Below the pieces are notes generated by a model. The model ran no database searches. It saw nothing but the letters and a program-made list of their open reading frames with translations, and had not been told where the DNA came from. A DNA stretch of 64,000 bases. Origin: a virus. Made by a program: the position numbers and the translations under genes. Position 1 is the stretch's first letter; the number at the start of each line of letters is the position of its first letter. The DNA is taken from the IMG/VR virus record IMGVR_UViG_3300028583_001329; one strand, written 5' to 3'. Positions 8,162-38,150 of the stretch are shown piece after piece.

Positions 8162-8698
8162 ATGACAACGATAGTCTGGGATGGACAGCAGTTGGCTAGT
8201 GATAGCCAGTTGACTGTGAATTGGAATGTAATATCACAAGAACCTTTTATCAAGCTACAACTCTTAAAAGGGATCTTTATTAATCCGGAGACTAAGGAAG
8301 AAGATAACTTAGTAGGTATGGGCTTTTCAGGTGACGCTGCCCAAATCTATCCATTTAGAGACTGGCTATTAGCTGGTTGTAAGCGAGAAGAATACGCAGA
8401 AGAATTTAAAGAATGCTGCGTCATTCTAGTATGCCGTAATTCAGTATGGCAATTTCACTACAGTCCCGACCCGCTACCGGTCAGGAACACTGTAGCAGTT
8501 GGATCAGGTTGCGATTTTGCAACATCTGCATTATCATTAGGTAAGACAGCGCCAGAGGCTGTAAGACACGCTATTAAGCATGATGTTTATAGTAGTGGAC
8601 CAGTGGTATGCTTAAGTATTGACGAAGCGGGAAAACCTTTCCTCCATCATTACAACGATGATGTTTCGTTAGAAGCCACCGCCTCTTTGGCGTGGTAG
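8162..8698 (+). CDS. proteasome-beta/HslV-like Ntn-hydrolase (threonine peptidase fold)
   Basis: ATG 8162 follows SD GGAGAGGA and gives MTTIVWDG..ASDSQ (Thr1). Also present: K near position 30, GFSGD, AVGSG, and C-terminal DVYSSGPV, all matching proteasome beta-type motifs. Confidence 0.75.
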   Translation: MTTIVWDGQQLASDSQLTVNWNVISQEPFIKLQLLKGIFINPETKEEDNLVGMGFSGDAAQIYPFRDWLLAGCKREEYAEEFKECCVILVCRNSVWQFHYSPDPLPVRNTVAVGSGCDFATSALSLGKTAPEAVRHAIKHDVYSSGPVVCLSIDEAGKPFLHHYNDDVSLEATASLAW

Positions 8699-9426: not shown

Positions 9427-10212
9427 TTAAACACCTGAAGATGTTAGTTTGATATGGCGATGATAGGTTTCGTGGTCATCCATCATCAGTATCTTTTTCA
9501 TCTTCGTATCGCGATATTCGGTATACAGTTCTTCCGCATCAGCATAACCTTCTACAATATCACGGTAAATGCCCAATGACATTCCACCATGTAGCCTGGC
9601 AGTATCAATACTAATAATAGACTGATTGTAGATGTAGCTCTTTACTGCAAACTCTACTAGTTTAGTAAACGCGGGAATGGTACGTGGGTTGAGGTTTTGC
9701 ATGTCAGGGTCGTTACTTACCACACAGCGTAAGACCGCGTTATTACTTAGAACACTCTCGGCTTCAACATGAATAGTGTTCTCATCAATCAATGTTACAG
9801 ATGATGTGCTATTTGTTTCATAGCCGTTGGCGGCGTCAATGATGTTAAGCGATTCTCTAATCATAGACGAACTAGTAGTATACGTGCTAGTTGCTTCGTT
9901 CTCATTAAACCCAAGACTCATCACAGAGATAATGCTACGGCCTTGTGTGGCCGTTTTAGGAATAACGTAGACCTGGTGGCTTCCGTCATCGTAAGTCTTC
10001 TTAGCAGAGCGTAGAGAGAGCTCTATCTGTATACCACCTACTAAATTACAATCTACAAGAACACGAGGTTTAACTACCTTAGCGATGATCTGAGATTCAA
10101 CGGATACCGGATAGTTGATAGTATTAAAACGTTTGTCTATAAAGACCTGACGTAGTATTTCCGCTGGGATTTTAAATGTGCAGTCCTGTACGGCTTTTTG
10201 AATGGGGCTCAT
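9427..10212 (-). CDS. conserved chimallivirus protein, probably virion structural
   Basis: 261 aa, divergent from phuZ, a position typical of the family. No catalytic motif. Confidence 0.45.
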   Translation of the reverse strand: MSPIQKAVQDCTFKIPAEILRQVFIDKRFNTINYPVSVESQIIAKVVKPRVLVDCNLVGGIQIELSLRSAKKTYDDGSHQVYVIPKTATQGRSIISVMSLGFNENEATSTYTTSSSMIRESLNIIDAANGYETNSTSSVTLIDENTIHVEAESVLSNNAVLRCVVSNDPDMQNLNPRTIPAFTKLVEFAVKSYIYNQSIISIDTARLHGGMSLGIYRDIVEGYADAEELYTEYRDTKMKKILMMDDHETYHRHIKLTSSGV

Positions 10213-10395: not shown

Positions 10396-11361
10396 ATGAG
10401 TAAACACACCTTAAGAATCTACGCGGCAGGCGGCTGCGCGACTAACTTAGCGAAGCCCTTTGTTGGTTTAGAATCGTCTGACATCTACGCCGATATCGAT
10501 CCTGTTTTTGTAGACACTAGCATGTCTAACATCGAAGGACCTATCACTGAAGAAATGTGCTACATCCTACCTGACGTAGATGGCTCAGGTAAGGTACGTC
10601 GTGAAAACCACCAACGTATCTCTGATTCAATCAAAGACATCGTGTCAATTCACCCTCCAGGTGACTTTAACATTGTTATGTTCTCAGCCGCAGGTGGTTC
10701 AGGTTCAGTAGCTGGACCATTGATTGCTCGTCATCTTCTTGAAATTGAAGCACCATTGATCTGTATTGTAGTGGGTTCTACAGACTCTGCTATCACGTGT
10801 ACTAACACACTTAATACACTGAAATCATTAGATAGCATCTCACAAGCTGCAGAGCTACCTATCACATTGTTCTACGAGGAGAACGGTGCTGGTGTTAAAC
10901 GTTCAGAAATTGACAAGCGCGTCAAAGGTGCTATCGGTTCTATCAGTGCTTTGGTATCTGGCAACAACCGTGAACTTGATACTAAAGACATTTCAACATG
11001 GGTGTACTACAACCGTGCGTCTAAAGTTGAACCACAGTTAAGTCAGCTATCTATTCTTCGTGACAACACAGCGGTAGAAGGTCTTAATGAACCTATCTCT
11101 ATTGCTTCATTGTTAGCAGACCCTGACACGGAGATGCCTGAAGCTGCGCCCGATTATCAATGTATCGGTTATCACCGTGATCAGTCTGGTGAGGTCCCTG
11201 ACATGCACCTTGTGATTTCTGTGAACGGCATTGAGCGTATCTACGAAGGTATTGCTAAGGCGCATGGTACTTACGAGAAGTCTACGTCTAAGCGTTCTCT
11301 AGACAGAAAGACTTTCGTTGGTGGTGGCGATCAAGTAACTAAAGATGGCATGGTACTGTAA
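10396..11361 (+). CDS. phuZ: PhuZ phage tubulin (spindle)
   Basis: N-terminal IYAAGGCATN, VDTS, tubulin signature SAAGGSGS, and C-terminal polymerisation tail ending DGMVL. Confidence 0.93.
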   Translation: MSKHTLRIYAAGGCATNLAKPFVGLESSDIYADIDPVFVDTSMSNIEGPITEEMCYILPDVDGSGKVRRENHQRISDSIKDIVSIHPPGDFNIVMFSAAGGSGSVAGPLIARHLLEIEAPLICIVVGSTDSAITCTNTLNTLKSLDSISQAAELPITLFYEENGAGVKRSEIDKRVKGAIGSISALVSGNNRELDTKDISTWVYYNRASKVEPQLSQLSILRDNTAVEGLNEPISIASLLADPDTEMPEAAPDYQCIGYHRDQSGEVPDMHLVISVNGIERIYEGIAKAHGTYEKSTSKRSLDRKTFVGGGDQVTKDGMVL

Positions 11362-11375
11362 GTACCCATCCAGAA

Positions 11376-11412
11376 CGCATACCGCCTCCCTGATGGGGAG
11401 GCGTCTATGCCG
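11376..11412 (+). terminator. hairpin + CTATGCCG after phuZ
   Basis: CGCCTCCC-TGAT-GGGGAGGCG then TCTATGCCG. Confidence 0.7.
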
Positions 11413-11428
11413 CTTGTCAGTATTTTTC

Positions 11429-11442
11429 AGACCTACATTACT
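11429..11442 (+). promoter_or_regulatory. putative early (virion-RNAP) promoter AGACCTACATTACT
   Basis: Variant of the repeated AGACCTATATTAC motif, which contains the phiKZ early consensus TATATTAC. Confidence 0.6.
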
Positions 11443-11481
11443 AGAGCAGTATAAGTAATATTACAGTGTGGAGATCGTACA

Positions 11482-11829
11482 ATGACAGTGCCTAACTACT
11501 TCCTGTTCGATATAACAACAGCCCGTGAAATCGCAAAGCCCTTCATTATAGATTTACAAAAACATCTAAGCGGTAGACCAGAAGTCGATATTGACAAAGT
11601 ATTAAATCAGTGGTTTGCCGAACGCCTAGTAACAATGGGCGTATTACATCATGACAACCCAATTGAAACTGACATGCCCCTAGGCGTAATCCTTTTCCTT
11701 AATAGCCTACCTGACGTTATTAAAGGTTCAGTTGATCAACAGCTCTTTCGTGCCGTAAGTAATCACTGGCATCCGGACACATCAGTTAAAACGTATATTA
11801 AAGACCAGACGTTGGTCATTAATGCCTAA
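11482..11829 (+). CDS. small protein, tandem array member 1
   Basis: GGAGA SD. N-terminal strand YFLFDI and C-terminal hairpin TYIKDQTLVINA. Confidence 0.65.
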   Translation: MTVPNYFLFDITTAREIAKPFIIDLQKHLSGRPEVDIDKVLNQWFAERLVTMGVLHHDNPIETDMPLGVILFLNSLPDVIKGSVDQQLFRAVSNHWHPDTSVKTYIKDQTLVINA

Positions 11830-11844
11830 AAGGACCTACCCCCT

Positions 11845-12447
11845 ATGGCGATAAGTATAATACTCCCTTTACATGAATTTATAGATAACGTAGTACTACG
11901 TTCATCGCTGTTCTTCTATAACGTTGATCGCCCTAACCCGGTCAAACGTAACCACGCTAAAGCTATTGTTCATCAACTGGTTGACGATGCGTTAAGTCAT
12001 TCATTTGCATGGGCACCAAGTGTCGATAAGACATCGGGTCTGTTGGAGGAATTCTACCCGTGGATGACAACACATCCGGTATTTGGATCACGCTTCTATC
12101 AGCAATGTATAGACCCGGTTGACGCTAGGCTAACTGAGATCTTAGGTACTTATGTAACGTACAACACACCTGACGTATGGAGCGTGAGAAAAGATGGCGA
12201 TAGTATCGTCCTAGAAAACCTAGGTTCTCACATGAACAACGCTGCTCAAGGTTTTGCTGATAAGTTACAAAGCCTACTTCAAGAAGAATACGCAACGCGT
12301 TTAGGTTCATTACCAATACATCGCAATAATGCAACTACGGGTGATGATCTTAAACATCAAGTAGACTCTACGTACGGTGACCTGACAAACACCGTATTGC
12401 GTTTAATGGTTGACAAAGATCTTAATTTGACAGGACAGCCCCAGTGA
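11845..12447 (+). CDS. small protein, tandem array member 2
   Basis: AAGGA SD. ISIILPL at the N-terminus and WSVRKDGDSIVLEN hairpin, plus a C-terminal extension. Confidence 0.65.
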   Translation: MAISIILPLHEFIDNVVLRSSLFFYNVDRPNPVKRNHAKAIVHQLVDDALSHSFAWAPSVDKTSGLLEEFYPWMTTHPVFGSRFYQQCIDPVDARLTEILGTYVTYNTPDVWSVRKDGDSIVLENLGSHMNNAAQGFADKLQSLLQEEYATRLGSLPIHRNNATTGDDLKHQVDSTYGDLTNTVLRLMVDKDLNLTGQPQ

Positions 12448-12908
12448 GCCAGATCTCTATCATAGTTAGTTTTGATGATGTACATTCGCTGTGTTTTAAA
12501 TACTTAGAACCTATTATAGGTGGTGCGTATTTACAGTGTATGGACTATACATTGGTATTGGATTATGAAGTAGAAGTGTTTTTGCTTGGTGAAAACAACC
12601 GCTATATGGTTGGTGAAGATGTGACCGAGTCGTGGCTAGAAGAACTATGTCCAATGCCTGATATCCGCAGTGCGTTAAAGAAAGATATACGACGCTCTGT
12701 ACAAGGCATCATTACCCGTATCTTAGGCGGTGATAAAATTAGCAACCACCATTACGAGTATCAGCGTCTAGGTGACCAGTTTGAATATCTCATTGTAGAT
12801 AAGGGTGATGTCAGAGATGCCGAGCTCGAAATGCTACGACGTTCAAATGACGAGCTTAAACAGAGAATACAGAATATGGAGGAAGGTTGGTGGGTCCAAG
12901 ATACCTAA
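12444..12908 (+). CDS. small protein, tandem array member 3
   Basis: GTG start overlapping the upstream stop (GTGA). ISIIVSFDD ... EYQRLGDQFEYLIVD. Confidence 0.6.
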   Translation: MSQISIIVSFDDVHSLCFKYLEPIIGGAYLQCMDYTLVLDYEVEVFLLGENNRYMVGEDVTESWLEELCPMPDIRSALKKDIRRSVQGIITRILGGDKISNHHYEYQRLGDQFEYLIVDKGDVRDAELEMLRRSNDELKQRIQNMEEGWWVQDT

Positions 12909-13270
12909 TATTAGATATCTCGCATGCGCGTGCTACTGAGAATCATTTAAACGGTTCCCTTGCAACTTACAATCTTAAGTTCACAGATTTATTAACAATG
13001 ACAGTTGAGGCATTGACTAACCTTGAAGATTATTACACCAACGATGAAAAGGTCACCGATTACGGATTGATGTATCGGTGCCTTAATCAATACAACGACA
13101 GACATCGTAAGGAGTACACCTTTGAGGATATTCATGACATCTGCACGATAGCGCTTAGAATATACAAGACCATTTACCCGGCCATTGGTACATTCTTTCA
13201 GCGATATACGTTCAGTAGACTTATTGTCTCTCAGTGTCTTGGAGATGACCTATATGTTGAGTGCTGTTGA
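12887..13270 (+). CDS. small protein, tandem array member 4
   Basis: GGAGG SD at 12878 (start probably GTG 12890). YLILDIS ... VSQCLGDDLYVEC. Confidence 0.6.
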   Translation: MVGPRYLILDISHARATENHLNGSLATYNLKFTDLLTMTVEALTNLEDYYTNDEKVTDYGLMYRCLNQYNDRHRKEYTFEDIHDICTIALRIYKTIYPAIGTFFQRYTFSRLIVSQCLGDDLYVECC

Positions 13271-13664
13271 ACCAGAAGATAAATTCTTCATCATTGACGT
13301 TAGGCAATATATGTTAAAGCTTGATCAGCAAGATGTCCAAGCACTTAACAACATCAAGATGAATTATCATGATGTATTGCTTTTAGCAGCGACTAGTGCA
13401 TTAACTAGTCAGTTTGATAAAGTCAAGGTCAAGGATCACGTAGAAGGTGAGCTCTACACATTACTTGATGAATATGATGAGCTGGGTGTGTCGGCCGATA
13501 ACTACCATACGTTTATGCATGTTATCAATATCACGCTACAAGTAGCATGGCCAATAACCCAGTCTGTAGATAATCTACAACGTAACATTCCCAACATCGA
13601 GTTTGTAGATGTTAATATAGTGGGTGATACTACTGTTGTTTACACATACCACATGGTGGGATAA
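13254..13664 (+). CDS. small protein, tandem array member 5
   Basis: ATG 13254 with GGAGA SD at 13241. FFIIDVR ... VDVNIVGDTTVVYT. Confidence 0.6.
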   Translation: MLSAVEPEDKFFIIDVRQYMLKLDQQDVQALNNIKMNYHDVLLLAATSALTSQFDKVKVKDHVEGELYTLLDEYDELGVSADNYHTFMHVINITLQVAWPITQSVDNLQRNIPNIEFVDVNIVGDTTVVYTYHMVG

Positions 13665-13675
13665 GAGAATATACA

Positions 13676-14047
13676 ATGATAGTGATTATCGATTTACCTA
13701 TGGATAGGCCGCCCTATCCTCCTGATCCCTCGCTGACAGCCGCAGATATAATTGAAGCGGCTACTGCGTTATGGGTTAATCAATTCATCGATGATGATAA
13801 CTTTGATACACACACGGTTGATCAGGTTGTTGATCATATCTGTAGCCGTATGGGTTTGAGTAGCGGTAAAAGTGAAGTACAGGAAATGATGTGTCATTAC
13901 GTTAATGACATTATACTGGAGACCTACGAAGCGGTGGACAAGTCTCTACGCCGCATCATGACAACCTTTGGCAATCGGCCATTGATTGACTACGTAGGTA
14001 CTAGCTTCCCTACACTGCTTGTCCAAGTTCATCTAGATGACCGCTAA
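13676..14047 (+). CDS. small protein, tandem array member 6
   Basis: MIVIIDLP ... IDYVGTSFPTLLVQV. Confidence 0.6.
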   Translation: MIVIIDLPMDRPPYPPDPSLTAADIIEAATALWVNQFIDDDNFDTHTVDQVVDHICSRMGLSSGKSEVQEMMCHYVNDIILETYEAVDKSLRRIMTTFGNRPLIDYVGTSFPTLLVQVHLDDR

Positions 14048-14393
14048 TATACTTCTTTTGGACTGTAGTAATTTACAGTCCATTTATGACGTTATGATAC
14101 CGATATGGCGTTATGAGACTAGACGTCCTATCCCCGCGTCGTTAGATAGCTTAACTTCTGAAATAATTAACTACTATAAAACCTATAGGGTTAAACCCGC
14201 TACGAGTTACACATCAGTTGCTAGTTACCTACAGGAGCAATATGAGTTCCCGGTAATAACGCCTATTGTGGAACCTCACTTTGCGGCCTTTTGTAAAGAA
14301 CTTTATAAATACCATAAACTAGCATTTGTATTGAGCTGTGACTATTACTATATATGTATCAAGCACAATACCATGTATTTAGAATTGGAATAA
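14037..14393 (+). CDS. small protein, tandem array member 7
   Basis: Overlaps the upstream gene. ILLLDCS ... YICIKHNTMYLELE. Confidence 0.6.
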   Translation: MTANILLLDCSNLQSIYDVMIPIWRYETRRPIPASLDSLTSEIINYYKTYRVKPATSYTSVASYLQEQYEFPVITPIVEPHFAAFCKELYKYHKLAFVLSCDYYYICIKHNTMYLELE

Positions 14394-14396
14394 GTT

Positions 14397-14783
14397 ATGG
14401 ATAATAATCATCAGCCCTACCCACCTACCAGTCCTGTGGTGTATATTGTCTCAGCAGAGCGTGGTGTCAAACGACTGTATGAGGCTATATCAGCTGAGGA
14501 AACCGTCGTTGAAGATTTTAAGAGACTAATAGCTATGGCTGTTAACGCAGCTTCGCTATCAGTAAACGATGTGGAAAACAATCGCCATAATGCTATAAAC
14601 GATTACCTCTATCCATTGCAACTAACCGTCCGTGAGAGAGAGAATTACATCGCTCACCTGGACGTGTTTATTCAGGATCTAATAACAGGCTTTCACCAAC
14701 TTGGTATACGTGATCTAGGAGGTGTTGAGTTTGTCGGATTTGATGGGATGGATATTGTCGTTAATGTCTATGCGCAGCAATAA
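14397..14783 (+). CDS. small protein, tandem array member 8
   Basis: VYIVSAE ... VEFVGFDGMDIVVNV. Confidence 0.6.
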   Translation: MDNNHQPYPPTSPVVYIVSAERGVKRLYEAISAEETVVEDFKRLIAMAVNAASLSVNDVENNRHNAINDYLYPLQLTVRERENYIAHLDVFIQDLITGFHQLGIRDLGGVEFVGFDGMDIVVNVYAQQ

Positions 14784-14804
14784 TAACAAAAAGGAGCACG
14801 TGCA

Positions 14805-15149
14805 GTGCTTAAATTTATGATCCTAACCTTAGATAGCTTATCGGGGTTAATTGCTAGATACAGTGAAGAGATGAACCCAGATTCACCTGTCGTTAATAAT
14901 GAAACGCTGCATTGGTTAAATTCAGATATTGATGATTTGATTCAAGGTGGGTTTGAACAACAAACAGACGTCGTACACGCCACGTTAACGTCGATCATTG
15001 ATGATGTAAGCCGATACCTTAATAGATACAACATTGAGGTAGCTGATTTTAGAACAATAGAAATTGTCAATCGCGACGGTACAATACTAATTTATTTTGG
15101 AGAGTTTAGTTATGGTGATATTCCCAAGTCACAATGTAAGCATACGTGA
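14805..15149 (+). CDS. small protein, tandem array member 9
   Basis: AAGGAG SD with GTG start. FMILTLDS ... IEIVNRDGTILIYF. Confidence 0.6.
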   Translation: MLKFMILTLDSLSGLIARYSEEMNPDSPVVNNETLHWLNSDIDDLIQGGFEQQTDVVHATLTSIIDDVSRYLNRYNIEVADFRTIEIVNRDGTILIYFGEFSYGDIPKSQCKHT

Positions 15150-15522
15150 CGTTGTTAGCTTCTCGCTATATGACAATACCACAATAGGTACTGTCTTTAG
15201 CAGAGTGCGTATTATTGGGGTGGTTGATTACGATACCGCCTCTAACGCCATCGATCCGGTAGCGCTACACGAGGATATCATCACTAACCTACCTGAAGGT
15301 AGCGTTGATGACCCTACGGCGTATAGCTACTTAAAGGTACAGATGGAAAATGGCAATAAGACGTTTATCGGCATGCCGTGGGTCAACATGTCGACCCTTG
15401 AACGCGTTGGTAGTAGTAAGCTGCAGTTTACTATCGATGATGTTAATAGCGATGACGTCCCGCGCATCCTAGCTGCGTTAACCTCAAATGGCTTTACTGT
15501 ATCGGATACTAAGATCTTATAA
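15112..15522 (+). CDS. conserved chimallivirus protein upstream of DNA polymerase (phiKZ gp49-like by position)
   Basis: ATG 15112 with GGAG SD. Beta-rich, ending in IGMPWVN...LQFTIDDV...ILAALTSNGF. Confidence 0.55.
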   Translation: MVIFPSHNVSIRDVVSFSLYDNTTIGTVFSRVRIIGVVDYDTASNAIDPVALHEDIITNLPEGSVDDPTAYSYLKVQMENGNKTFIGMPWVNMSTLERVGSSKLQFTIDDVNSDDVPRILAALTSNGFTVSDTKIL

Positions 15523-15560
15523 TACAAAGGTAAACTTTTACAGACCTCTGTTTATATAGT

Positions 15561-15662
15561 ATGAACGTTGTTGAGTTTGAGACCCTCCTCAGTGTTCTTG
15601 ATCTTGAGCCAGAAGATCGATCCCTAAAGGTAGTCACGCACCTTTATATTTGTCAAACGTAG
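15561..15662 (+). CDS. putative 33-aa small ORF (or sRNA) missing from the ORF track
   Basis: ATG 15561 to TAG 15660-15662 reads MNVVEFETLLSVLDLEPEDRSLKVVTHLYICQT and is followed directly by a hairpin-TTATGCCG. No SD. Confidence 0.3.
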   Translation: MNVVEFETLLSVLDLEPEDRSLKVVTHLYICQT

Positions 15663-15669
15663 TGTTTAC

Positions 15670-15713
15670 CCTTCCTACACCTTTCCTCTAGGGTGTAGGA
15701 AGGTTTTATGCCG
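15670..15713 (+). terminator. hairpin + TTTTATGCCG
   Basis: CCTTCCTACACC (15670-15681) / GGTGTAGGAAGG (15692-15703). Confidence 0.7.
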
Positions 15714-15787: not shown

Positions 15788-17923
15788 ATGGAAAACCCAT
15801 TTGTTCTCCCTACCCAAGAGTATGGTCGAGATTTGAATATCCTGGAACGTTACTATCAGGATACCGCAAGATACCTAGCCTTAGAGACAGGTCGTTCACA
15901 TGACGAGTGCTACCAGTGGGTTAAAGAAACCACCCACCCTTCAAGCGGTAAGTTGCCTTTAAAAGATCCAAAGGTGCTAAGCCTTAAACGAGACAAGCCA
16001 GGTGAGCGTGATAAGTGGGAAACTACATTCCTTGGCTACCTTCAAAAGGTGAACAACGAGAACTTAATCATCAGCCCTACACTAGCAGCATATAGACACC
16101 CTGATCAGCACGAGTCTATACTTGCTAAGTATATCCGTAAGAACGTAGATAAGCGTAATGCTGTTAAGAAAAAGAAATTCCAGTCTACGATGGCAGGTAA
16201 TGATGCTGAGGCTGGCTTTTACGACATCCTGCAATCTACATTTAAAATCAAGAACAACTCAGTAAGTGGTGGTCATGCATCAGCTTTCACACCGCTGTAT
16301 AACAAATCAACCCACTCTACACTAACCTCTACCTGCCGTTCGGCTACCGGGTATGCCAACGCCAACAACGAACGCTTCCTATACGGTAACCGTCACTATT
16401 ACGATGTGGATGTGGCAATCCAGAACATCATCTCAATAATCAACAATAGTGACTATAAGACAATAGCAGAAGCGGTAGAGAAATATAATCTACACGTCCC
16501 TAGTGTAGAGGAAGTCTGTGAAACGATTAAATATTCAACAGACCTATACTGGCGTAATCTGCAGTGGTCTAACCGTATCCACAGTCTGATATCTAAACTG
16601 TCTGATATGGAACGTGTGGCTTATACTTACACGGGTAATTTCTACCATCTACGTGAATTAAACCCAGAGTTCACTAGAACGTTCCTAGATCGTTTTACTA
16701 CGTGCTCAGACACCACGATAGACAACCCAGAAGCAGTCATCAGTGAGATGGATGGGGATCTTGAAGCGTATGTAGGCATTCTGCATGCTCACGATTTAAA
16801 GAATAAACCCATCTTTAAAATCAAAGAATCTGAACCTGAGACTTATGCACACATTGCTAGTTCAGTTAACAATATCTTTGACTTACTGAAAGAATATACA
16901 GTATTGTTTAAAGCGTTCTGGGTGACCCTCAACCCGCCCGCATCGGTAGCGGTATTACCCGATGCTATACGTCGTGGTGTATTGGTGTCGGATACAGACT
17001 CTACCATCTTCACTGTTCAAGACTGGACTATGTGGTATAAGAATGGCGTGGTTGATTTCGATGCTAAAACAACGAGTGTATGGGCGTTTGTTGTATACAT
17101 TGCCCAGATGACTACCATGCATCTGCTTGCTTTGTTGTCATCTAACATGGGTGTGGCTAAGCCTGATTTGTATAAGTTATCAATGAAGAACGAATACATG
17201 ATGCCCGCGTTGTCATTGACAAGTCGTGCTAAACACTACGCCTATTACATTAGTGCGCAGGAAGGTAACGTCTATAAGAAGATGAAAACGGATATCAAGG
17301 GGGTTGAGCTTAAATCTACTAAAGCCCCTAAAGAGATCATTGAAAAGCTACACAAGTACATCATGAAGCCGATGGACTGGACGTTGGAAGGTAAGAAAAT
17401 CCCTATTAAAGAAATGATGCAAGAAGTTGCTGACCAAGAGCACGCTATCATTGACAGCCTTAATCAGGGTAAGATCGATTATCTAACCACCGCCGGTATT
17501 AAAGCTGCTGAGTCGTACGCTAACCCACAAGGATCTAATTACATCTATTACGATTTCTGGAATACTGTCTTTGGTCCTAAGTATGGTGAGGTGCCACCAC
17601 CACCGTATAGCACGGTAAAGGTATCGCTAAATGCTACGTCTAAGACAAAGGTATCAGAATGGATACGTAGTATCAAGGATGTTGAATTAGCAGAACGTCT
17701 TGAAGACTGGATGGGTAAGAATAACAAACTAGCAGGGATAACGCAGTTCTTAATCCCCATGGATGTTATTAGTACCAAAGGGATGCCTGAAGAAATAATC
17801 CAATGTATGGATATACGGAAGATTGTGTTCACCACCATGGCACCATTCTATCTGGTATTGGAGACGTATGGGGTGTATATGAAAGATAAGAATATCACTA
17901 AGCTTGTTAGCGATATCATGTAG
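15788..17923 (+). CDS. family B DNA polymerase, catalytic (motif B/C) half (phiKZ gp50-like)
   Basis: Motif B-like Q..FKIKNNSVSG and motif C VLVSDTDSTIF. 711 aa. Lacks the exonuclease and motif A, which lie at 60878-62791. Confidence 0.85.
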   Translation: MENPFVLPTQEYGRDLNILERYYQDTARYLALETGRSHDECYQWVKETTHPSSGKLPLKDPKVLSLKRDKPGERDKWETTFLGYLQKVNNENLIISPTLAAYRHPDQHESILAKYIRKNVDKRNAVKKKKFQSTMAGNDAEAGFYDILQSTFKIKNNSVSGGHASAFTPLYNKSTHSTLTSTCRSATGYANANNERFLYGNRHYYDVDVAIQNIISIINNSDYKTIAEAVEKYNLHVPSVEEVCETIKYSTDLYWRNLQWSNRIHSLISKLSDMERVAYTYTGNFYHLRELNPEFTRTFLDRFTTCSDTTIDNPEAVISEMDGDLEAYVGILHAHDLKNKPIFKIKESEPETYAHIASSVNNIFDLLKEYTVLFKAFWVTLNPPASVAVLPDAIRRGVLVSDTDSTIFTVQDWTMWYKNGVVDFDAKTTSVWAFVVYIAQMTTMHLLALLSSNMGVAKPDLYKLSMKNEYMMPALSLTSRAKHYAYYISAQEGNVYKKMKTDIKGVELKSTKAPKEIIEKLHKYIMKPMDWTLEGKKIPIKEMMQEVADQEHAIIDSLNQGKIDYLTTAGIKAAESYANPQGSNYIYYDFWNTVFGPKYGEVPPPPYSTVKVSLNATSKTKVSEWIRSIKDVELAERLEDWMGKNNKLAGITQFLIPMDVISTKGMPEEIIQCMDIRKIVFTTMAPFYLVLETYGVYMKDKNITKLVSDIM

Positions 17924-19690: not shown

Positions 19691-21559
19691 ATGGCTGTAA
19701 ATAAAGATAACAAGTCTACTCCGTCTAACCCTGCTATGGCAGAAGCAATGAAAGAGTCAGGCGCGCAGCAAAGCCGTTCAACAAACCAAAACCAACCCAA
19801 TCGAGGAAGAAACGTGGAAGGTCCAAAATCCCTAGCCGGTCTTAATTCTTTATTCAGCAACCCAATGACGCGTAGCACTGCAGGCGAAGTCACTGGTGAG
19901 CTAACTCAAACGCTTCGTAAGATCCTATCTTCAGAGCGTAACAGCGTACTTGAGAAAGTAACGATTGAACCTGTGGACGGCGATAGCCATTCACTAGCCC
20001 TTTCTGTAATTGTATTACAGTTCCCATTCAACGAGCACGTTGCCTGCTATACCTACATTGTAGAAGGTTCTGGTGACGGTCTTGCAGATCGCGTTCCAAC
20101 TATTGCTGGACAGCAAGTAAACATCAAGACTGTTCCTGGTGACGTATACGACGATAACATGTGGGAACAAGTTAGCATGTATCTTCGCAGCAAGTACGGT
20201 AACGAGCGCAGCTTCATCGATGTTGGCGCTAACGTAATTCCACGTACAGTTACAGCTGACCATGAGAAAGAAATCCGCAGCCTATTATACTTCGGTATCA
20301 CTGCGTGTTACACTACTCTACTTAAAATCAATGGCGATACCAGCAACAGCATTAGCGTAGCTGATATCAACACCGGTGACGTGCTAGCAGCGCAGCTTCG
20401 CTACAATCCAGGCGACACGCAAACTGCTGCTGGTCAGACTGTACGTTCAGATCTATCTATCGCACTTCGCGGTATCATGCAAACAGGTGAAGCGGTATCT
20501 GCTAAGCAGACTATCCCACTAACAACTGTTGATGGTTACATGGATCTAACTTACGTTCCACGTCAGCAACAACAAATGGCGTATGGTCAGCCTGTTGATC
20601 ACCGTCAATACGTACCGCGTCTAGTAATGACTAACGTATCTTCTGGTCTAAGCGTTAACACGCTAGAGCTTGAACTACTAGGTCTTTCTACTACGGTACT
20701 AGCAGCCCAGCACCACGCATGGGTTAAGTGCTTCAAGCCTGTATACGGTGCCAGTAAGAATGACATTCATGACATCGGCGCACTAGGCTTTGAAGTTGAC
20801 TTCGCAAACAATGGTGAGTACGGTCGTATCTCTACTAAGAGCGATTCATTCTCAGACCAAAGTCTGTTCGAGCTAGTACAACGCAGCATGTACAACGAAG
20901 TACTGTTCTCTTGGGATATCCCTGAAACCGGTGACCTAAGCTGGTTACAAGAAACGTTCCTAGCCGCAGCGGCTGGTAACAGCAAAGCAATTAACACTCT
21001 GTTCAATGCAGCAGATACGTTAACTGGCGGTGCGTTTACTCGTAACTACGACGGTGCTCCTCCTCTAATGAGTGAGATTACTCGTGTACATCTTGGTACT
21101 TACCTAGATGAAAATAATACTCCACGTGATCTACGTGATCTTGATTACCTAGCGATGCTAAACATCTACGGTGATAAAGACCTAGGTCTAGTTGAAGCAT
21201 TTGGTAACACTTACGACCAGACTGATCGTCCTCAAGAACTACGTCTGGCAGAGCGTGCTAAAATCATCGAAGCTACACTAGGTGATACAGTAACCATCAC
21301 TGGTTACGCACGTCGTGTTACATTCAATCCTAAGTTCATCGAAGCGCTTGCTATGGCTTGTGCAGAAGCTGGACTTAAGATCCGCCCTGAGGGTATCTAC
21401 GGTAACGACATGGGTGCCATTCGTGGTAACACGTCAGCTGTTGGTATGGGTATTGGTCAAAACGCCGGTGGTGCTGTCTTCCAACAAGGTGGTGCTAACT
21501 GGGGCGGTTCTGGTATGGGTTACGGTGCTCGTAACTCTGGTGGACTGTGGAACCGCTAA
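19691..21559 (+). CDS. chmA: chimallin, the phage nucleus shell protein (phiKZ gp54 / 201phi2-1 gp105-like)
   Basis: 622 aa with disordered N-terminal arm and Gly-rich C-terminus. Lies between the DNA pol block and nvRNAP beta'N, the diagnostic position. Strongly biased codon use suggests high expression. Confidence 0.85.
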   Translation: MAVNKDNKSTPSNPAMAEAMKESGAQQSRSTNQNQPNRGRNVEGPKSLAGLNSLFSNPMTRSTAGEVTGELTQTLRKILSSERNSVLEKVTIEPVDGDSHSLALSVIVLQFPFNEHVACYTYIVEGSGDGLADRVPTIAGQQVNIKTVPGDVYDDNMWEQVSMYLRSKYGNERSFIDVGANVIPRTVTADHEKEIRSLLYFGITACYTTLLKINGDTSNSISVADINTGDVLAAQLRYNPGDTQTAAGQTVRSDLSIALRGIMQTGEAVSAKQTIPLTTVDGYMDLTYVPRQQQQMAYGQPVDHRQYVPRLVMTNVSSGLSVNTLELELLGLSTTVLAAQHHAWVKCFKPVYGASKNDIHDIGALGFEVDFANNGEYGRISTKSDSFSDQSLFELVQRSMYNEVLFSWDIPETGDLSWLQETFLAAAAGNSKAINTLFNAADTLTGGAFTRNYDGAPPLMSEITRVHLGTYLDENNTPRDLRDLDYLAMLNIYGDKDLGLVEAFGNTYDQTDRPQELRLAERAKIIEATLGDTVTITGYARRVTFNPKFIEALAMACAEAGLKIRPEGIYGNDMGAIRGNTSAVGMGIGQNAGGAVFQQGGANWGGSGMGYGARNSGGLWNR

Positions 21560-34226: not shown

Positions 34227-34928
34227 ATGGCCGATAATAACTTTCGCCGTCCACCTCGCAAGAAGAATGTGTTGGACGAGACAAAACTACGCCTTAGCGC
34301 CGATCCCGTATCTGGTTCTAAGCGTCGCCCTTCTCTTGCGTTTAGTGTGGTAAAGAACAACCCACGTATTGACATCTATACCAATGTAGAGGGTGATAAG
34401 AACAACGGTAACATCCGTGCAGCAATGGACGCGCCAGTATTCTTTGCTCTAATTGGATTGGTTGAAAAGGCCATTGAATCAGAACCAGGTCAGCGTTTTG
34501 TAATTCAAAACAAGAACTATAAATGGTTCGGCCAAGGTAAGAAATCTGATGCACCGGTAAACCTAAGCGATACCTTAGTAGGTAAGGATGCTGAAGGTCG
34601 TATCTTTATCAGCGTTATTGATAAAGAAGATAATAGCCGTCCTAAGATCAAGTTTATCTTTAGCTCAGGTTACTGGCATGACTTATTCCATGGTGATGGT
34701 TCACCATTTAGCGAAGCGGAAGATAGCGTACTGTGTGCCAAGGCATTTACTGAAATGCTTAAAGGTCTAGTACCGTTAGTTATGGCTAACGAATATACTC
34801 CACCACCACCTCGCGATCAACAAGGTGGATCTGGTTATGGCGGCGGTAATAAAGGCGGCGGCAATAACTACAATGGCGGCGGTCAGTCTTCGTCACCAAC
34901 CATTGACTTTGATGATGATATCTTTTAA
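34227..34928 (+). CDS. chmC: ChmC-like nucleus-associated RNA-binding protein (Whirly fold, disordered tail; phiKZ gp67-like)
   Basis: Located directly before the gp68-like subunit. Basic N-terminus, beta-rich core, and Gly/Asn-rich tail ending IDFDDDIF. Assignment rests on synteny and architecture. Confidence 0.7.
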   Translation: MADNNFRRPPRKKNVLDETKLRLSADPVSGSKRRPSLAFSVVKNNPRIDIYTNVEGDKNNGNIRAAMDAPVFFALIGLVEKAIESEPGQRFVIQNKNYKWFGQGKKSDAPVNLSDTLVGKDAEGRIFISVIDKEDNSRPKIKFIFSSGYWHDLFHGDGSPFSEAEDSVLCAKAFTEMLKGLVPLVMANEYTPPPPRDQQGGSGYGGGNKGGGNNYNGGGQSSSPTIDFDDDIF

Positions 34929-36653: not shown

Positions 36654-38150
36654 GTGAAAATGCTACAATCTAACATGACAGTACAACGTTTGATGTTCTT
36701 CGAGATGGGCAGCTACCATGCGTTAGCTCTCCGCCCATACCAAACACACACGGATGCTCAGTCTATAGGTATTTTCAATGACGTGACTAACGGTGGTACT
36801 AACCTAAGTACCAATGCAGTAGCGCAAGGCTGTGATGGCTTAGTAAGACCATCAGCACAGGCTGCTGGAATGGCAAACATAGCAGGAGGATGGGATGAAC
36901 GTCGCTTTGTATTCCTCATGCATGTCTCTTTTGAGAAAATGGGTGTCACTATTTATCAAGTATTATCTGGTTACACTGACCGTTTTGATCTTAGTCTAAA
37001 TGGGACATTGAGCCCTGACATGATGCTGCACTTCAATAACTCTGTTGAAATTAGACAGAGTGCTATATTAGGTGCAAACGGCCGACAAATGCAAATGTCA
37101 GTACGCGATGCGTCACACATCCTTACAGATAGCGTTGGTGGTGTTAACCAAAATGGATATCCAGGAGGCTGGGGTGCAGGTACGCAGAGTCTGAACTATT
37201 CGTGCAGCATGCGTCCAATGGATATCTTCCATAGAAGTGGAGTTCCTAGTGTGCTTCACGAAAGCTCTTATACCAACAATGCTGTTGATGGTCGTGTGAG
37301 CTTCCTACAAGGACCTAAGAAGAGCCGACGCTCTAACTCATCAGCCCCTGTGTATCTAAGTCGTCTGCTAACTGCACAGCAAACAGCAGAAAGAAACAGC
37401 TTAGACGCAATGGACGATGACCAAACGATCCACAACGCAGCAGCGGGTCAGGTAATTGAGCAAAGCATGATGGATGATGGTTTCATCTCAACACTAGATA
37501 ATCACAGCCAGATCATGTCAACCGCAGCAATTAGTTATGGCGAGTTATGCTCATTTAACCCCCACGTAGATGGTATTACTCAAGTTATTAAACGTAAAGC
37601 TGGTGCTCCAATGCGTCACGGTCGTGATTCAAACCACTGGAACGGTGCTAACAATGAAACACTTATTGCTACAATCCTAAGTCACTCAGTGCCTGCGCTG
37701 ATGCTAGATCTGATGCTATTAGGTGTAGAGTTTACAGCAACTAACAGTACAATAGATAGCGATTACGCAGTTGCCGTAACTGGTGCTAACAGTTTTGCTG
37801 AAGGTATCGACTTGCAGCCATATGTAACACGTTTCATTGACCGTTTGAAGTTTGAGATACTATCGGATATTTCGCGCCGTAACCGCATCTCATTTGGCAT
37901 CCACATGCGCTGTGATGTGGTAGCAGACACAACCATAGATATCACGTTAGACGGCAATACAGAGCGTTTCACGATGCCTAGCTTCTGCGATGCATTAGCA
38001 ACACCTGTATTTACCACACAACGTACCGATCTAGATAACGTTGCTAACGACATTATGTCAATTAGTAACAACCTAGAGGCCACGGCAGCAATGCACTACG
38101 ACCATGGTCAATCGCCTATAGTAACCCCCTTTGACAATCAAGGAGTATAA
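36654..38150 (+). CDS. picA: PicA/Imp1 nuclear import factor (phiKZ gp69-like)
   Basis: About 498 aa directly after gp68 (ATG 36660 is the likelier start). Contains ANIAGGWDERRFVFLM and CSMRPMDIF. Confidence 0.72.
   Translation: MKMLQSNMTVQRLMFFEMGSYHALALRPYQTHTDAQSIGIFNDVTNGGTNLSTNAVAQGCDGLVRPSAQAAGMANIAGGWDERRFVFLMHVSFEKMGVTIYQVLSGYTDRFDLSLNGTLSPDMMLHFNNSVEIRQSAILGANGRQMQMSVRDASHILTDSVGGVNQNGYPGGWGAGTQSLNYSCSMRPMDIFHRSGVPSVLHESSYTNNAVDGRVSFLQGPKKSRRSNSSAPVYLSRLLTAQQTAERNSLDAMDDDQTIHNAAAGQVIEQSMMDDGFISTLDNHSQIMSTAAISYGELCSFNPHVDGITQVIKRKAGAPMRHGRDSNHWNGANNETLIATILSHSVPALMLDLMLLGVEFTATNSTIDSDYAVAVTGANSFAEGIDLQPYVTRFIDRLKFEILSDISRRNRISFGIHMRCDVVADTTIDITLDGNTERFTMPSFCDALATPVFTTQRTDLDNVANDIMSISNNLEATAAMHYDHGQSPIVTPFDNQGV

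Follow-up and report, generated by a model that had tools for sequence, protein, structure and literature searches.

A run of nine small genes, g1 to g9, follows the phage tubulin gene phuZ in the virus genome recorded as IMGVR_UViG_3300028583_001329 (IMG/VR), from which we analysed a stretch of 64,000 nucleotides (the window, to which the positions below refer). Our data tip the balance, if only slightly, toward the view that this array is an ancient and much diverged operon of paralogs built on the fold of Imp2 – a nuclear import factor of phage phiKZ – and that several of its members probably act as cargo adaptors. This judgement combines two of different standing: that the genes are old copies of one small fold is likely; that import is the main function of most members, for which the evidence is genomic position and predicted fold, falls short of an even chance. 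The common origin of all nine genes, the sheet formed by first strand and hairpin, and any role in import are matters that we infer.

As we envisage it, the array would be the local version, in an uncultured chimallivirus, of the block of genes that encodes gp43–gp48 in phiKZ. Most or all of its members would be very old, strongly diverged copies of a single small, acidic alpha/beta fold, in which an N-terminal strand ending in a helix-capping aspartate leads into a bundle of three or four helices, and in which a C-terminal beta-hairpin presumably pairs with the first strand; in some members (g2 and g3) tails would have been added. Several of the nine, by analogy with phiKZ Imp2 and Imp4, would serve as cargo-specific adaptors, each binding one client protein and, at the ChmA shell, presenting this to the importer PicA/Imp1, with rapid divergence tracking changes of client.

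The nine genes and their conservation

The genes, with protein lengths in amino acids (aa) and, where given, the isoelectric point (pI) or the identity of orthologues in related contigs, are as follows.

11482..11829, +, g1, 115 aa, pI 5.6; orthologues 68–74% identical
11845..12447, +, g2, 200 aa, the fold core extended by two C-terminal helices; phiKZ gp43 family by hhalign, hmmsearch and a match among predicted viral structures (BFVD)
12444..12908, +, g3, 154 aa, fold pattern plus helical C-terminal tail; orthologues 60–61% identical
12887..13270, +, g4, 127 aa, paralogue of g5 by phmmer and hhalign
13245..13664 (start corrected from 13185), +, g5, 139 aa, paralogue of g4 by phmmer and hhalign
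13676..14047, +, g6, 123 aa, pI 4.3; orthologues 56–64% identical
14037..14393, +, g7, 118 aa, best model of the fold (AlphaFold2, AF2; predicted local distance difference test, pLDDT, 70–87)
14397..14783, +, g8, 128 aa, element order as in g7 (AF2 pLDDT 60–77)
14805..15149, +, g9, 114 aa, final array gene, in the position of phiKZ Imp4; low-confidence AF2 model, weak hhalign matches

An earlier note on this DNA, made from its letters, had described nine tightly packed open reading frames (ORFs) of 114–200 aa, and the description has held: all nine lie on the + strand, separated by gaps of 3–21 nt or overlapping by 4–26 nt, and all are conserved in relatives. Only the start of the fifth needed correction, ATG at 13245 (139 aa) being more likely than TTG at 13185 because the orthologues in relatives begin there.

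In related uncultured phage contigs (L002, L003/L005 and L006; four lineages, with L002 nearly identical to the window) all nine genes are intact and of similar length, at 38–74% protein identity, as against 85–87% for the adjacent PhuZ among the same relatives. That the ORFs have stayed intact, and yet have diverged further than PhuZ, marks them as real, fast-evolving genes. All nine proteins are acidic (pI 4.3–5.9). A small irregularity was seen in L002 at 14385–14410: compared with the window and with contig L001, its g9 orthologue lies one base out of step with g7–g8, so that the g8–g9 spacers of these almost identical genomes differ by a 1-nt indel. When 5.8 billion proteins were searched by word index, g1 matched only the same four lineages; and scanning metagenomes with an alignment of PhuZ turned up no relatives of intermediate distance, for which reason deeper alignments could not be made.

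A recurring gene order – phuZ (with a gp42-like virion gene nearby), three to eleven small genes, an SH3 gene, DNA polymerase, a gp52-like gene and ChmA – was present in all 17 of the GenBank chimalliviruses fetched, and the window conforms to it: the nine genes stand between phuZ and the genes for the SH3 protein (gp49) and polymerase (gp50), on the same strand. The loci sharing the order are those of RTH11, Eowyn, phiKZ, SL2, Goslar, Ea35-70, PhiPA3, FLC1-1B, SNUABM_37, RisingSun, PS119XW, RSF1, KpLz-2_45, EL, BUCT660, Psa21, 201phi2-1, FBKp24 and FishSpeaker. In phiKZ the small genes of this slot are those for gp43–gp48. In the literature searched, which was incomplete, we met with no account of the block as a single fold family.

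A shared pattern and a predicted fold

Evidence that the nine proteins belong together comes firstly from a pattern in their sequences, which we compared with the 88 other proteins of 90–220 aa encoded by the same genome (Fisher p values). At least four of five hydrophobic residues occur together within the first 20 positions in every array protein and in 24 of the 88 others (p 3e-5); a hydrophobic N-terminal strand followed by aspartate is present in seven of nine and in none of the 88 (p 3e-9); a hairpin-like pattern within the last 32 residues marks eight of nine as against 29 of 88 (p 2e-3); and N-terminal strand and hairpin patterns coincide in eight of nine as against eight of 88 (p 7e-7). 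The strand with aspartate extends to other arrays, being found in 30 of 122 array proteins (19 other loci, 17 chimalliviruses), again compared with 0 of 88 (p 1.5e-8). The N-terminal strand, often ending in D, and the terminal hairpin that had been proposed from the letters are enriched, save that in g2 and g3 the hairpin (AF2-predicted or motif-assigned) is followed by an extra helical tail and so is not terminal.

The aspartate after the first strand is kept in orthologues, though sometimes as asparagine or glutamate, as would be expected of a helix cap more than of a catalytic residue; nor is it coupled to other conserved acidic positions. An identity as a PIN or Rossmann-like domain, which such a start of four hydrophobic residues and D brings to mind, was rejected: no such family or fold was matched, and the aspartate does not behave like a catalytic one. 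In g3 we note that the second hairpin strand (12780–12824, residues 113–127; ..FEYLIVDKGD) resembles the N-terminal strand and aspartate of g4 (RYLILDISH; hhalign score 18.9), and that a helical, coiled-coil-like tail follows it much as helix 1 follows the N-terminal strand.

A pattern missing from 88 small proteins of the same genome sits badly with the notion that the nine are unrelated, their strand–helices–hairpin layout being a common small alpha/beta build reached independently or favoured within the operon. We regard that notion as quite improbable. What speaks for it is that most pairs lack significant similarity. All-against-all BLASTP among the nine finds no matches – pairwise identity is as unobvious as the earlier note had said – and searches of Pfam and PHROGs returned nothing significant for any of them. 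When 1.84 billion representative proteins were searched exhaustively in HMMER with the g5 profile, this recovered only the profile's own clade and one repeat artefact, a 2,827-aa cadherin-like protein (P0009, E 1.9e-14) that we rejected as a homologue, its score being the sum of 14 short repeats (G-Y-F-A-I-D..V-T-L-T-Q-A-G-V-D-A-I-N).

More sensitive comparisons tell against independent origins. For these we assembled an array set of 172 proteins from 22 chimallivirus loci and compared the nine window families with all 112 families, using reversed copies as decoys; the best reversed decoy in hhalign scored 25.3. In the 172-protein set phmmer aligns g4 with the L006 orthologue of g5 at E 8.7e-5, and hhalign, working from small orthologue alignments, pairs g4 with g5 end to end over 114 columns (5–121 with 14–130; score 27.2, P 4e-4, probability 35%), so that RYLILD falls on KFFIID and the terminal GDD turn on GDT. 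On these alignments g4 and g5 are homologous paralogues, the most recent duplicates of the array. Equally, profile evidence places g2, which lies near the beginning of the array, in the phiKZ gp43 family: hhalign against that family reaches 34.3 over 91 columns, above the decoy maximum, and the g2 profile matches Eowyn gp075 in hmmsearch at E 0.0016, the best decoy lying near 0.03. Also above the decoy maximum are g8 with RSF1 ORF006 (34.4, probability 73%) and g2 with a Klebsiella-phage family (27.3), together with a few borderline pairs.

Below these lies a stratum of weak similarity that nonetheless exceeds its decoys. Among the nine, nine real pairs and one decoy pair score 18 or more (Mann–Whitney p 0.012 for scores), and six real alignments against one decoy span at least 50 columns, the long ones being g4–g5, g4–g9, g4–g7 and g6–g7. 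Against the arrays of other phages the window families give 16 real and five decoy matches at a score of at least 22, and 29 against 14 at 20 or above. Weak matches in register join g3 to Eowyn gp076, also third in its own array (25.6, 89 columns), g6 to g7 (78 columns), and g9 to the genes that end the arrays of Ea35-70 and SNUABM_37 (83 columns). The best of them tend toward the same relative place in the array – g1 with first, g2 with second, g3 with third, g8 with second-last, g9 with last – and this collinearity, which reaches significance at a single threshold (rho 0.60, p 0.014), is suggestive only. When hmmsearch was iterated in the 172-protein set, decoys included, the families gained no members at E < 1e-3, and the profiles of the nine found nothing clear among the ORFs of L007, a distant relative, and RTH11. 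Taken together, sequence alone proves one paralogue pair (g4/g5) and one orthology (g2 with the gp43 family), and hints at more.

Predicted structures carry the argument further. AF2 was run on read-through fusions of frame-sharing genes, with orthologue rows as the alignment, and five members were modelled (g1, g2, g7, g8 and g9). With strands as E and helices as H, the model of g7 (pLDDT 70–87) reads E4–9, H11–28, H36–49, H58–69, H79–98, E102–109, E112–118; g8 (60–77, gene coordinates) has E14–19, four helices, E107–116 and E119–128; g2 (about 55–60) has E4–8, four helices, E110–117 and E120–128, then two additional helices; g9 (about 40) shows a strand, three helices and a hairpin; and g1 (about 30–55) three helices and a terminal hairpin. 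The order of elements – strand, three or four helices, hairpin – is common to all five, save that the first strand of g1 is unformed. The prediction of structures that the earlier note had recommended therefore yields one element order, though in three of the five models at low confidence, a weakness that leaves some room for unrelated proteins.

That room is narrowed by fold searches, which return array proteins of other chimalliviruses and not random small proteins. Foldseek against the PDB gave nothing at E <= 0.001, a wide PDB fold search with VIA-align was likewise without a convincing match, and the ESM Atlas gave nothing; the PDB holds no entry for phiKZ gp47 or gp48. In BFVD, however, the matches of both window models are mostly small uncharacterised chimallivirus proteins, and every match that could be identified is a member of the same phuZ-to-polymerase block. 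Two are identified by name, PhiPA3 039 (gp43 family) and PhiPA3 044 (Imp2 homologue); the others were assigned to array genes by phage and length. These are Eowyn proteins of 187, 131, 118 and 116 aa (gp075, gp074, gp079 and gp083), the 187-aa protein being the best match of the g1–g2 model (E 3e-4); Psa21 305 and 129 aa; PS119XW 264 aa; 201phi2-1 276 aa (gp79); Goslar 325 aa (gp237); FBKp24 167 aa; EL 119 aa; Ea35-70 127 aa; and SL2 178 aa, which has the length and position of gp47. Chance would hardly produce such enrichment for one genomic slot.

Possible import adaptors and the alternatives

A central issue is what such a family would do. The importer Imp1/PicA uses several cargo-specific surfaces, and to our knowledge the accessory factors Imp2, Imp4, Imp5 and Imp7 are known only from phiKZ, being described as restricted to Pseudomonas phages. 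Two of them are encoded in the slot under discussion: phiKZ orf47 is imp2 and orf48 is imp4, both cargo-specific import factors (bioRxiv 10.1101/2024.03.27.586873). Imp2 is needed to import the RecA-like Nlp1 and is itself imported via Imp1 (bioRxiv 10.1101/2024.03.27.586873), while Imp4, together with Imp5, is needed to import the host TopA; Imp2 and Imp4 are presented as adaptors for particular cargoes, with conservation confined to Pseudomonas phages (bioRxiv 10.1101/2024.03.27.586873; 10.64898/2026.09.21.753271).

Among the BFVD matches the Imp2 family is represented. A search with phmmer groups PhiPA3 044, the SL2 protein of 178 aa, the PS119XW protein of 264 aa and the 201phi2-1 protein of 276 aa in a single family with phiKZ gp47, and models of this family are among the best matches to both window models (E 5e-3 to 0.1; target template modelling score, TM, 0.30–0.46), one of the query models being of low confidence and the SL2, PS119XW and 201phi2-1 proteins being assigned by phage and length. 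A panel of nuclear-import adaptors, as the earlier note had proposed, thus gains from the slot shared with imp2 and imp4 and from the Imp2-family structure matches, on evidence confined to position and predicted fold. Its companion proposal of a diversified single-fold family fares better, with one element order in five AF2 models, the end-to-end alignment of g4 with g5 and a profile excess of nine to one, although only g7 and g8 were modelled with fair confidence.

Several points weigh against the Imp2-fold adaptor reading. Besides g4/g5, no pairwise link among the nine exceeds the best decoy. Of the five members modelled, g7 and g8 alone yielded usable models, those of g1, g2 and g9 having a pLDDT of about 40–60; and the models derive from read-through fusions with alignments of 5–8 rows. 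The BFVD Foldseek matches are themselves weak (E 3e-4 to 0.1, probability 0.8–1.0, target TM 0.37–0.57), most being mapped by phage and length only. With alignments of 3–5 rows, phmmer, iterated hmmsearch and hhalign link none of the nine to Imp2 (phiKZ gp47, PhiPA3 gp044) or Imp4 above decoys. Finally, of the phiKZ block's approximately seven genes only two have been linked with import and three can be dispensed with, so that the function may not extend to the whole array.

The last point derives in part from transposon data for phiKZ (supplement of PMC12676376), in which orf43, orf47, orf48 and orf49 are without insertions and orf44, orf45 and orf46 carry 6–11 sites: the block mixes essential and dispensable genes. 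The tolerance of orf44–46, and the lack of any reported import role for gp43–46, lend some weight to a different account, in which the nine are one fold family whose main job is not import. They could be replication or nuclear accessory factors produced along with the SH3 protein and the polymerase – the array is in one operon with the SH3 gene, whose product is polymerase-associated, and the gene for the polymerase comes directly after – or early host-takeover or anti-defence proteins, each binding a different host target, for which fast divergence and acidity are the usual marks of proteins whose partners change. But the only block members of known function are import adaptors, and the block is fixed at one place in 17 chimalliviruses, unlike typical mobile anti-defence islands. 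We hold this account to be unlikely.

A further question is whether the proteins act singly. The earlier note had also raised a hetero-oligomer, an arrangement compatible with the Imp2-fold adaptor reading: co-transcription with overlapping stop and start codons favours matched amounts, and edge strands of a small sheet could conceivably pair between subunits. The fused models, however, have predicted TM scores (pTM) of 0.32–0.38, with no confident packing between domains; in phiKZ, moreover, Imp2 and Imp4 differ in cargo, and of the genes beside them three can be lost and others cannot. That all nine assemble into one complex therefore strikes us as highly improbable.

A bolder extension of the adaptor reading, and a rather unlikely one, is that all nucleus-forming phages have, in the whole of this block, a single family of PicA/Imp1 adaptors, expandable and specific to clients, as a phage counterpart of a karyopherin-adaptor repertoire. 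Each paralogue would then admit a single class of cargo, of phage or host origin, to the phage nucleus; the order of paralogues would predate the radiation of the Chimalliviridae, and Imp2 and Imp4 would be its two characterised members.

The wider interest lies in how cargo is chosen for the phage nucleus. Should the block be a single ancient fold family with Imp2 among its members, every chimallivirus would carry 6–11 candidate adaptors; fast divergence would explain why sequence searches missed them, and cargo selectivity would be directly testable in Goslar, RAY, PCH45, phiKZ and others. A fold without a solved relative is in addition a worthwhile structural target, and nine 'hypothetical' genes of the window can now be annotated as belonging to a defined and conserved block whose role can be tested.

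Genomic setting and comparison with known systems

The window belongs to a metagenome-derived genome of 190,650 bp with direct terminal repeats. Since it encodes homologues of PhuZ, ChmA, PicA/Imp1 and ChmC/Imp6, the phage is, by gene content, a member of the Chimalliviridae, the nucleus-forming jumbo phages. It is far from cultured phages: the closest PhuZ in a GenBank phage is only 41% identical, and megablast to GenBank phages gave no match. The features outside the array are these.

10396..11361, +, phuZ (phage tubulin), upstream neighbour of the array; phrog_4733 'tubulin PhuZ', E 2.6e-89
11382..11403, +, conserved stem-loop after phuZ (CGCCTCCC..GGGAGGCG, then TCTATGCCG); invariant in five related contigs while the surrounding coding DNA diverged
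11431..11441, +, phage promoter-like motif ACCTACATTAC, 40 nt upstream of g1; invariant in relatives
15097..15522, +, SH3 protein associated with phage DNA polymerases (phiKZ gp49 homologue), final gene of the operon; PF20287 SH3DP, E 5.5e-30
15670..15703, +, strong intrinsic terminator closing the operon; 14-bp stem, then TTTTAT
15788..17923, +, DNA polymerase (phiKZ gp50 homologue), downstream neighbour; 711-aa ORF, the order SH3DP then polymerase recurring in chimallivirus loci
19691..21559, +, homologue of ChmA, the nuclear shell protein; phiKZ gp54 against the window's own genome, E 6.9e-42
34287..34895 (coordinates of match), +, ChmC/Imp6 (phiKZ gp67) homologue; E 3.8e-33
36675..38090 (coordinates of match), +, PicA/Imp1 (phiKZ gp69) homologue, core importer; E 1.1e-42, 30% identity, residues 15–513

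With a conserved promoter-like motif upstream and a terminator downstream, the nine genes and the SH3 gene look like one transcription unit with its own phage promoter, running from 11431 to 15670. The spacer between phuZ and g1 (11359–11481) is better conserved among related contigs than the coding DNA on either side, and within it the stem-loop, TCTATGCCG and ACCTACATTAC do not vary. The motif, ACCTA[CT]ATTA[CT], matches seven times in the window as against 1.7 expected, every time on the + strand; the whole genome has 16 copies, all on the + strand and mostly 24–60 nt before an ORF start (window positions 11431–11441, 22218, 25915, 35005, 39828 and 59535, and ten further genome sites). A stem-loop ending in TCTATGCCG often comes just before it, so terminator and promoter seem to form one cassette. 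The stem-loop at 11382..11403 is probably itself a terminator, a role that we infer, as it has no T-run. Matches to sigma-70-like promoters are fewer in the window than in shuffled sequence. An AT-rich box, TATAAGTAATATTAC, was considered as the repeated element and rejected: it has no repeat in the window, the truly repeated motif lying 10 nt upstream. The single promoter supposed by the earlier note is plausible on this showing; that it is early does not follow. Early promoters of phiKZ contain TATATTAC, which offers a lead.

The surroundings of phuZ vary among chimalliviruses in several small ways. Just upstream of it the window has an HslV-like peptidase gene (8162–8698), and a 'peptidase HslV family' protein is annotated at the equivalent place in Pseudomonas phage EL (gp015; L026 2677–3225) and Shewanella phage FishSpeaker (L031 2397–3005), which makes it a recurring chimallivirus gene and not one peculiar to this genome. 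Immediately before phuZ, on the - strand, a 261-aa gene (9427–10212) resembles the phiKZ gp42-like gene; its counterpart in L007 (14637–15434, - strand) is similar by eye in ORF translations, without alignment. The gp42-like gene stands before phuZ in the window, Eowyn, Goslar and Erwinia phages, and after it in phiKZ, PhiPA3, 201phi2-1 and L007. Between phuZ and this gene L007 carries a 340-aa ORF (13563–14585) with two GIY-YIG-like segments (..YVIHH..KVYVGTS.. and ..YVIYHP..QFYIGST..), possibly a homing endonuclease; in Psa21 an annotated GIY-YIG endonuclease opens the array (L028 2803–3453).

Set beside the gp43–gp48 block of phiKZ, the window array shows the same place, strand and tight packing, proteins of comparable size (about 115–200 aa), and the same neighbours: phuZ, a gp42-like virion gene, an SH3 gp49 homologue, polymerase, a gp52-like gene and ChmA. 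It differs in number, nine genes against about seven, and in the position of the gp42-like gene, which precedes phuZ in the window and follows it in phiKZ. Apart from g2, the window proteins have no sequence similarity to those of the phiKZ block, and g2 corresponds to only the N-terminal half of the 357-aa gp43.

The two import adaptors of phiKZ allow closer comparison. None of the BFVD matches was assignable to the family of Imp4, and no sequence link joins g9 to Imp4; yet Imp4 (gp48), like g9, is the last small gene before the SH3 gene, the proteins are of similar size (127 and 114 aa), and they share a layout, Imp4 having VFIVF near its start and a terminal hairpin, VLITVP..GVVVLLDE. Imp2 is longer than the window proteins, with an N-terminal extension of about 28 residues. 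It nevertheless shares their genomic slot, its family supplies structure matches (SL2 178 aa, probability 1.0, target TM 0.46; PhiPA3 044, probability 0.82, TM 0.40), and its sequence is laid out as theirs are: a strand (FVVINISD), helices, and a hairpin near the C-terminus.

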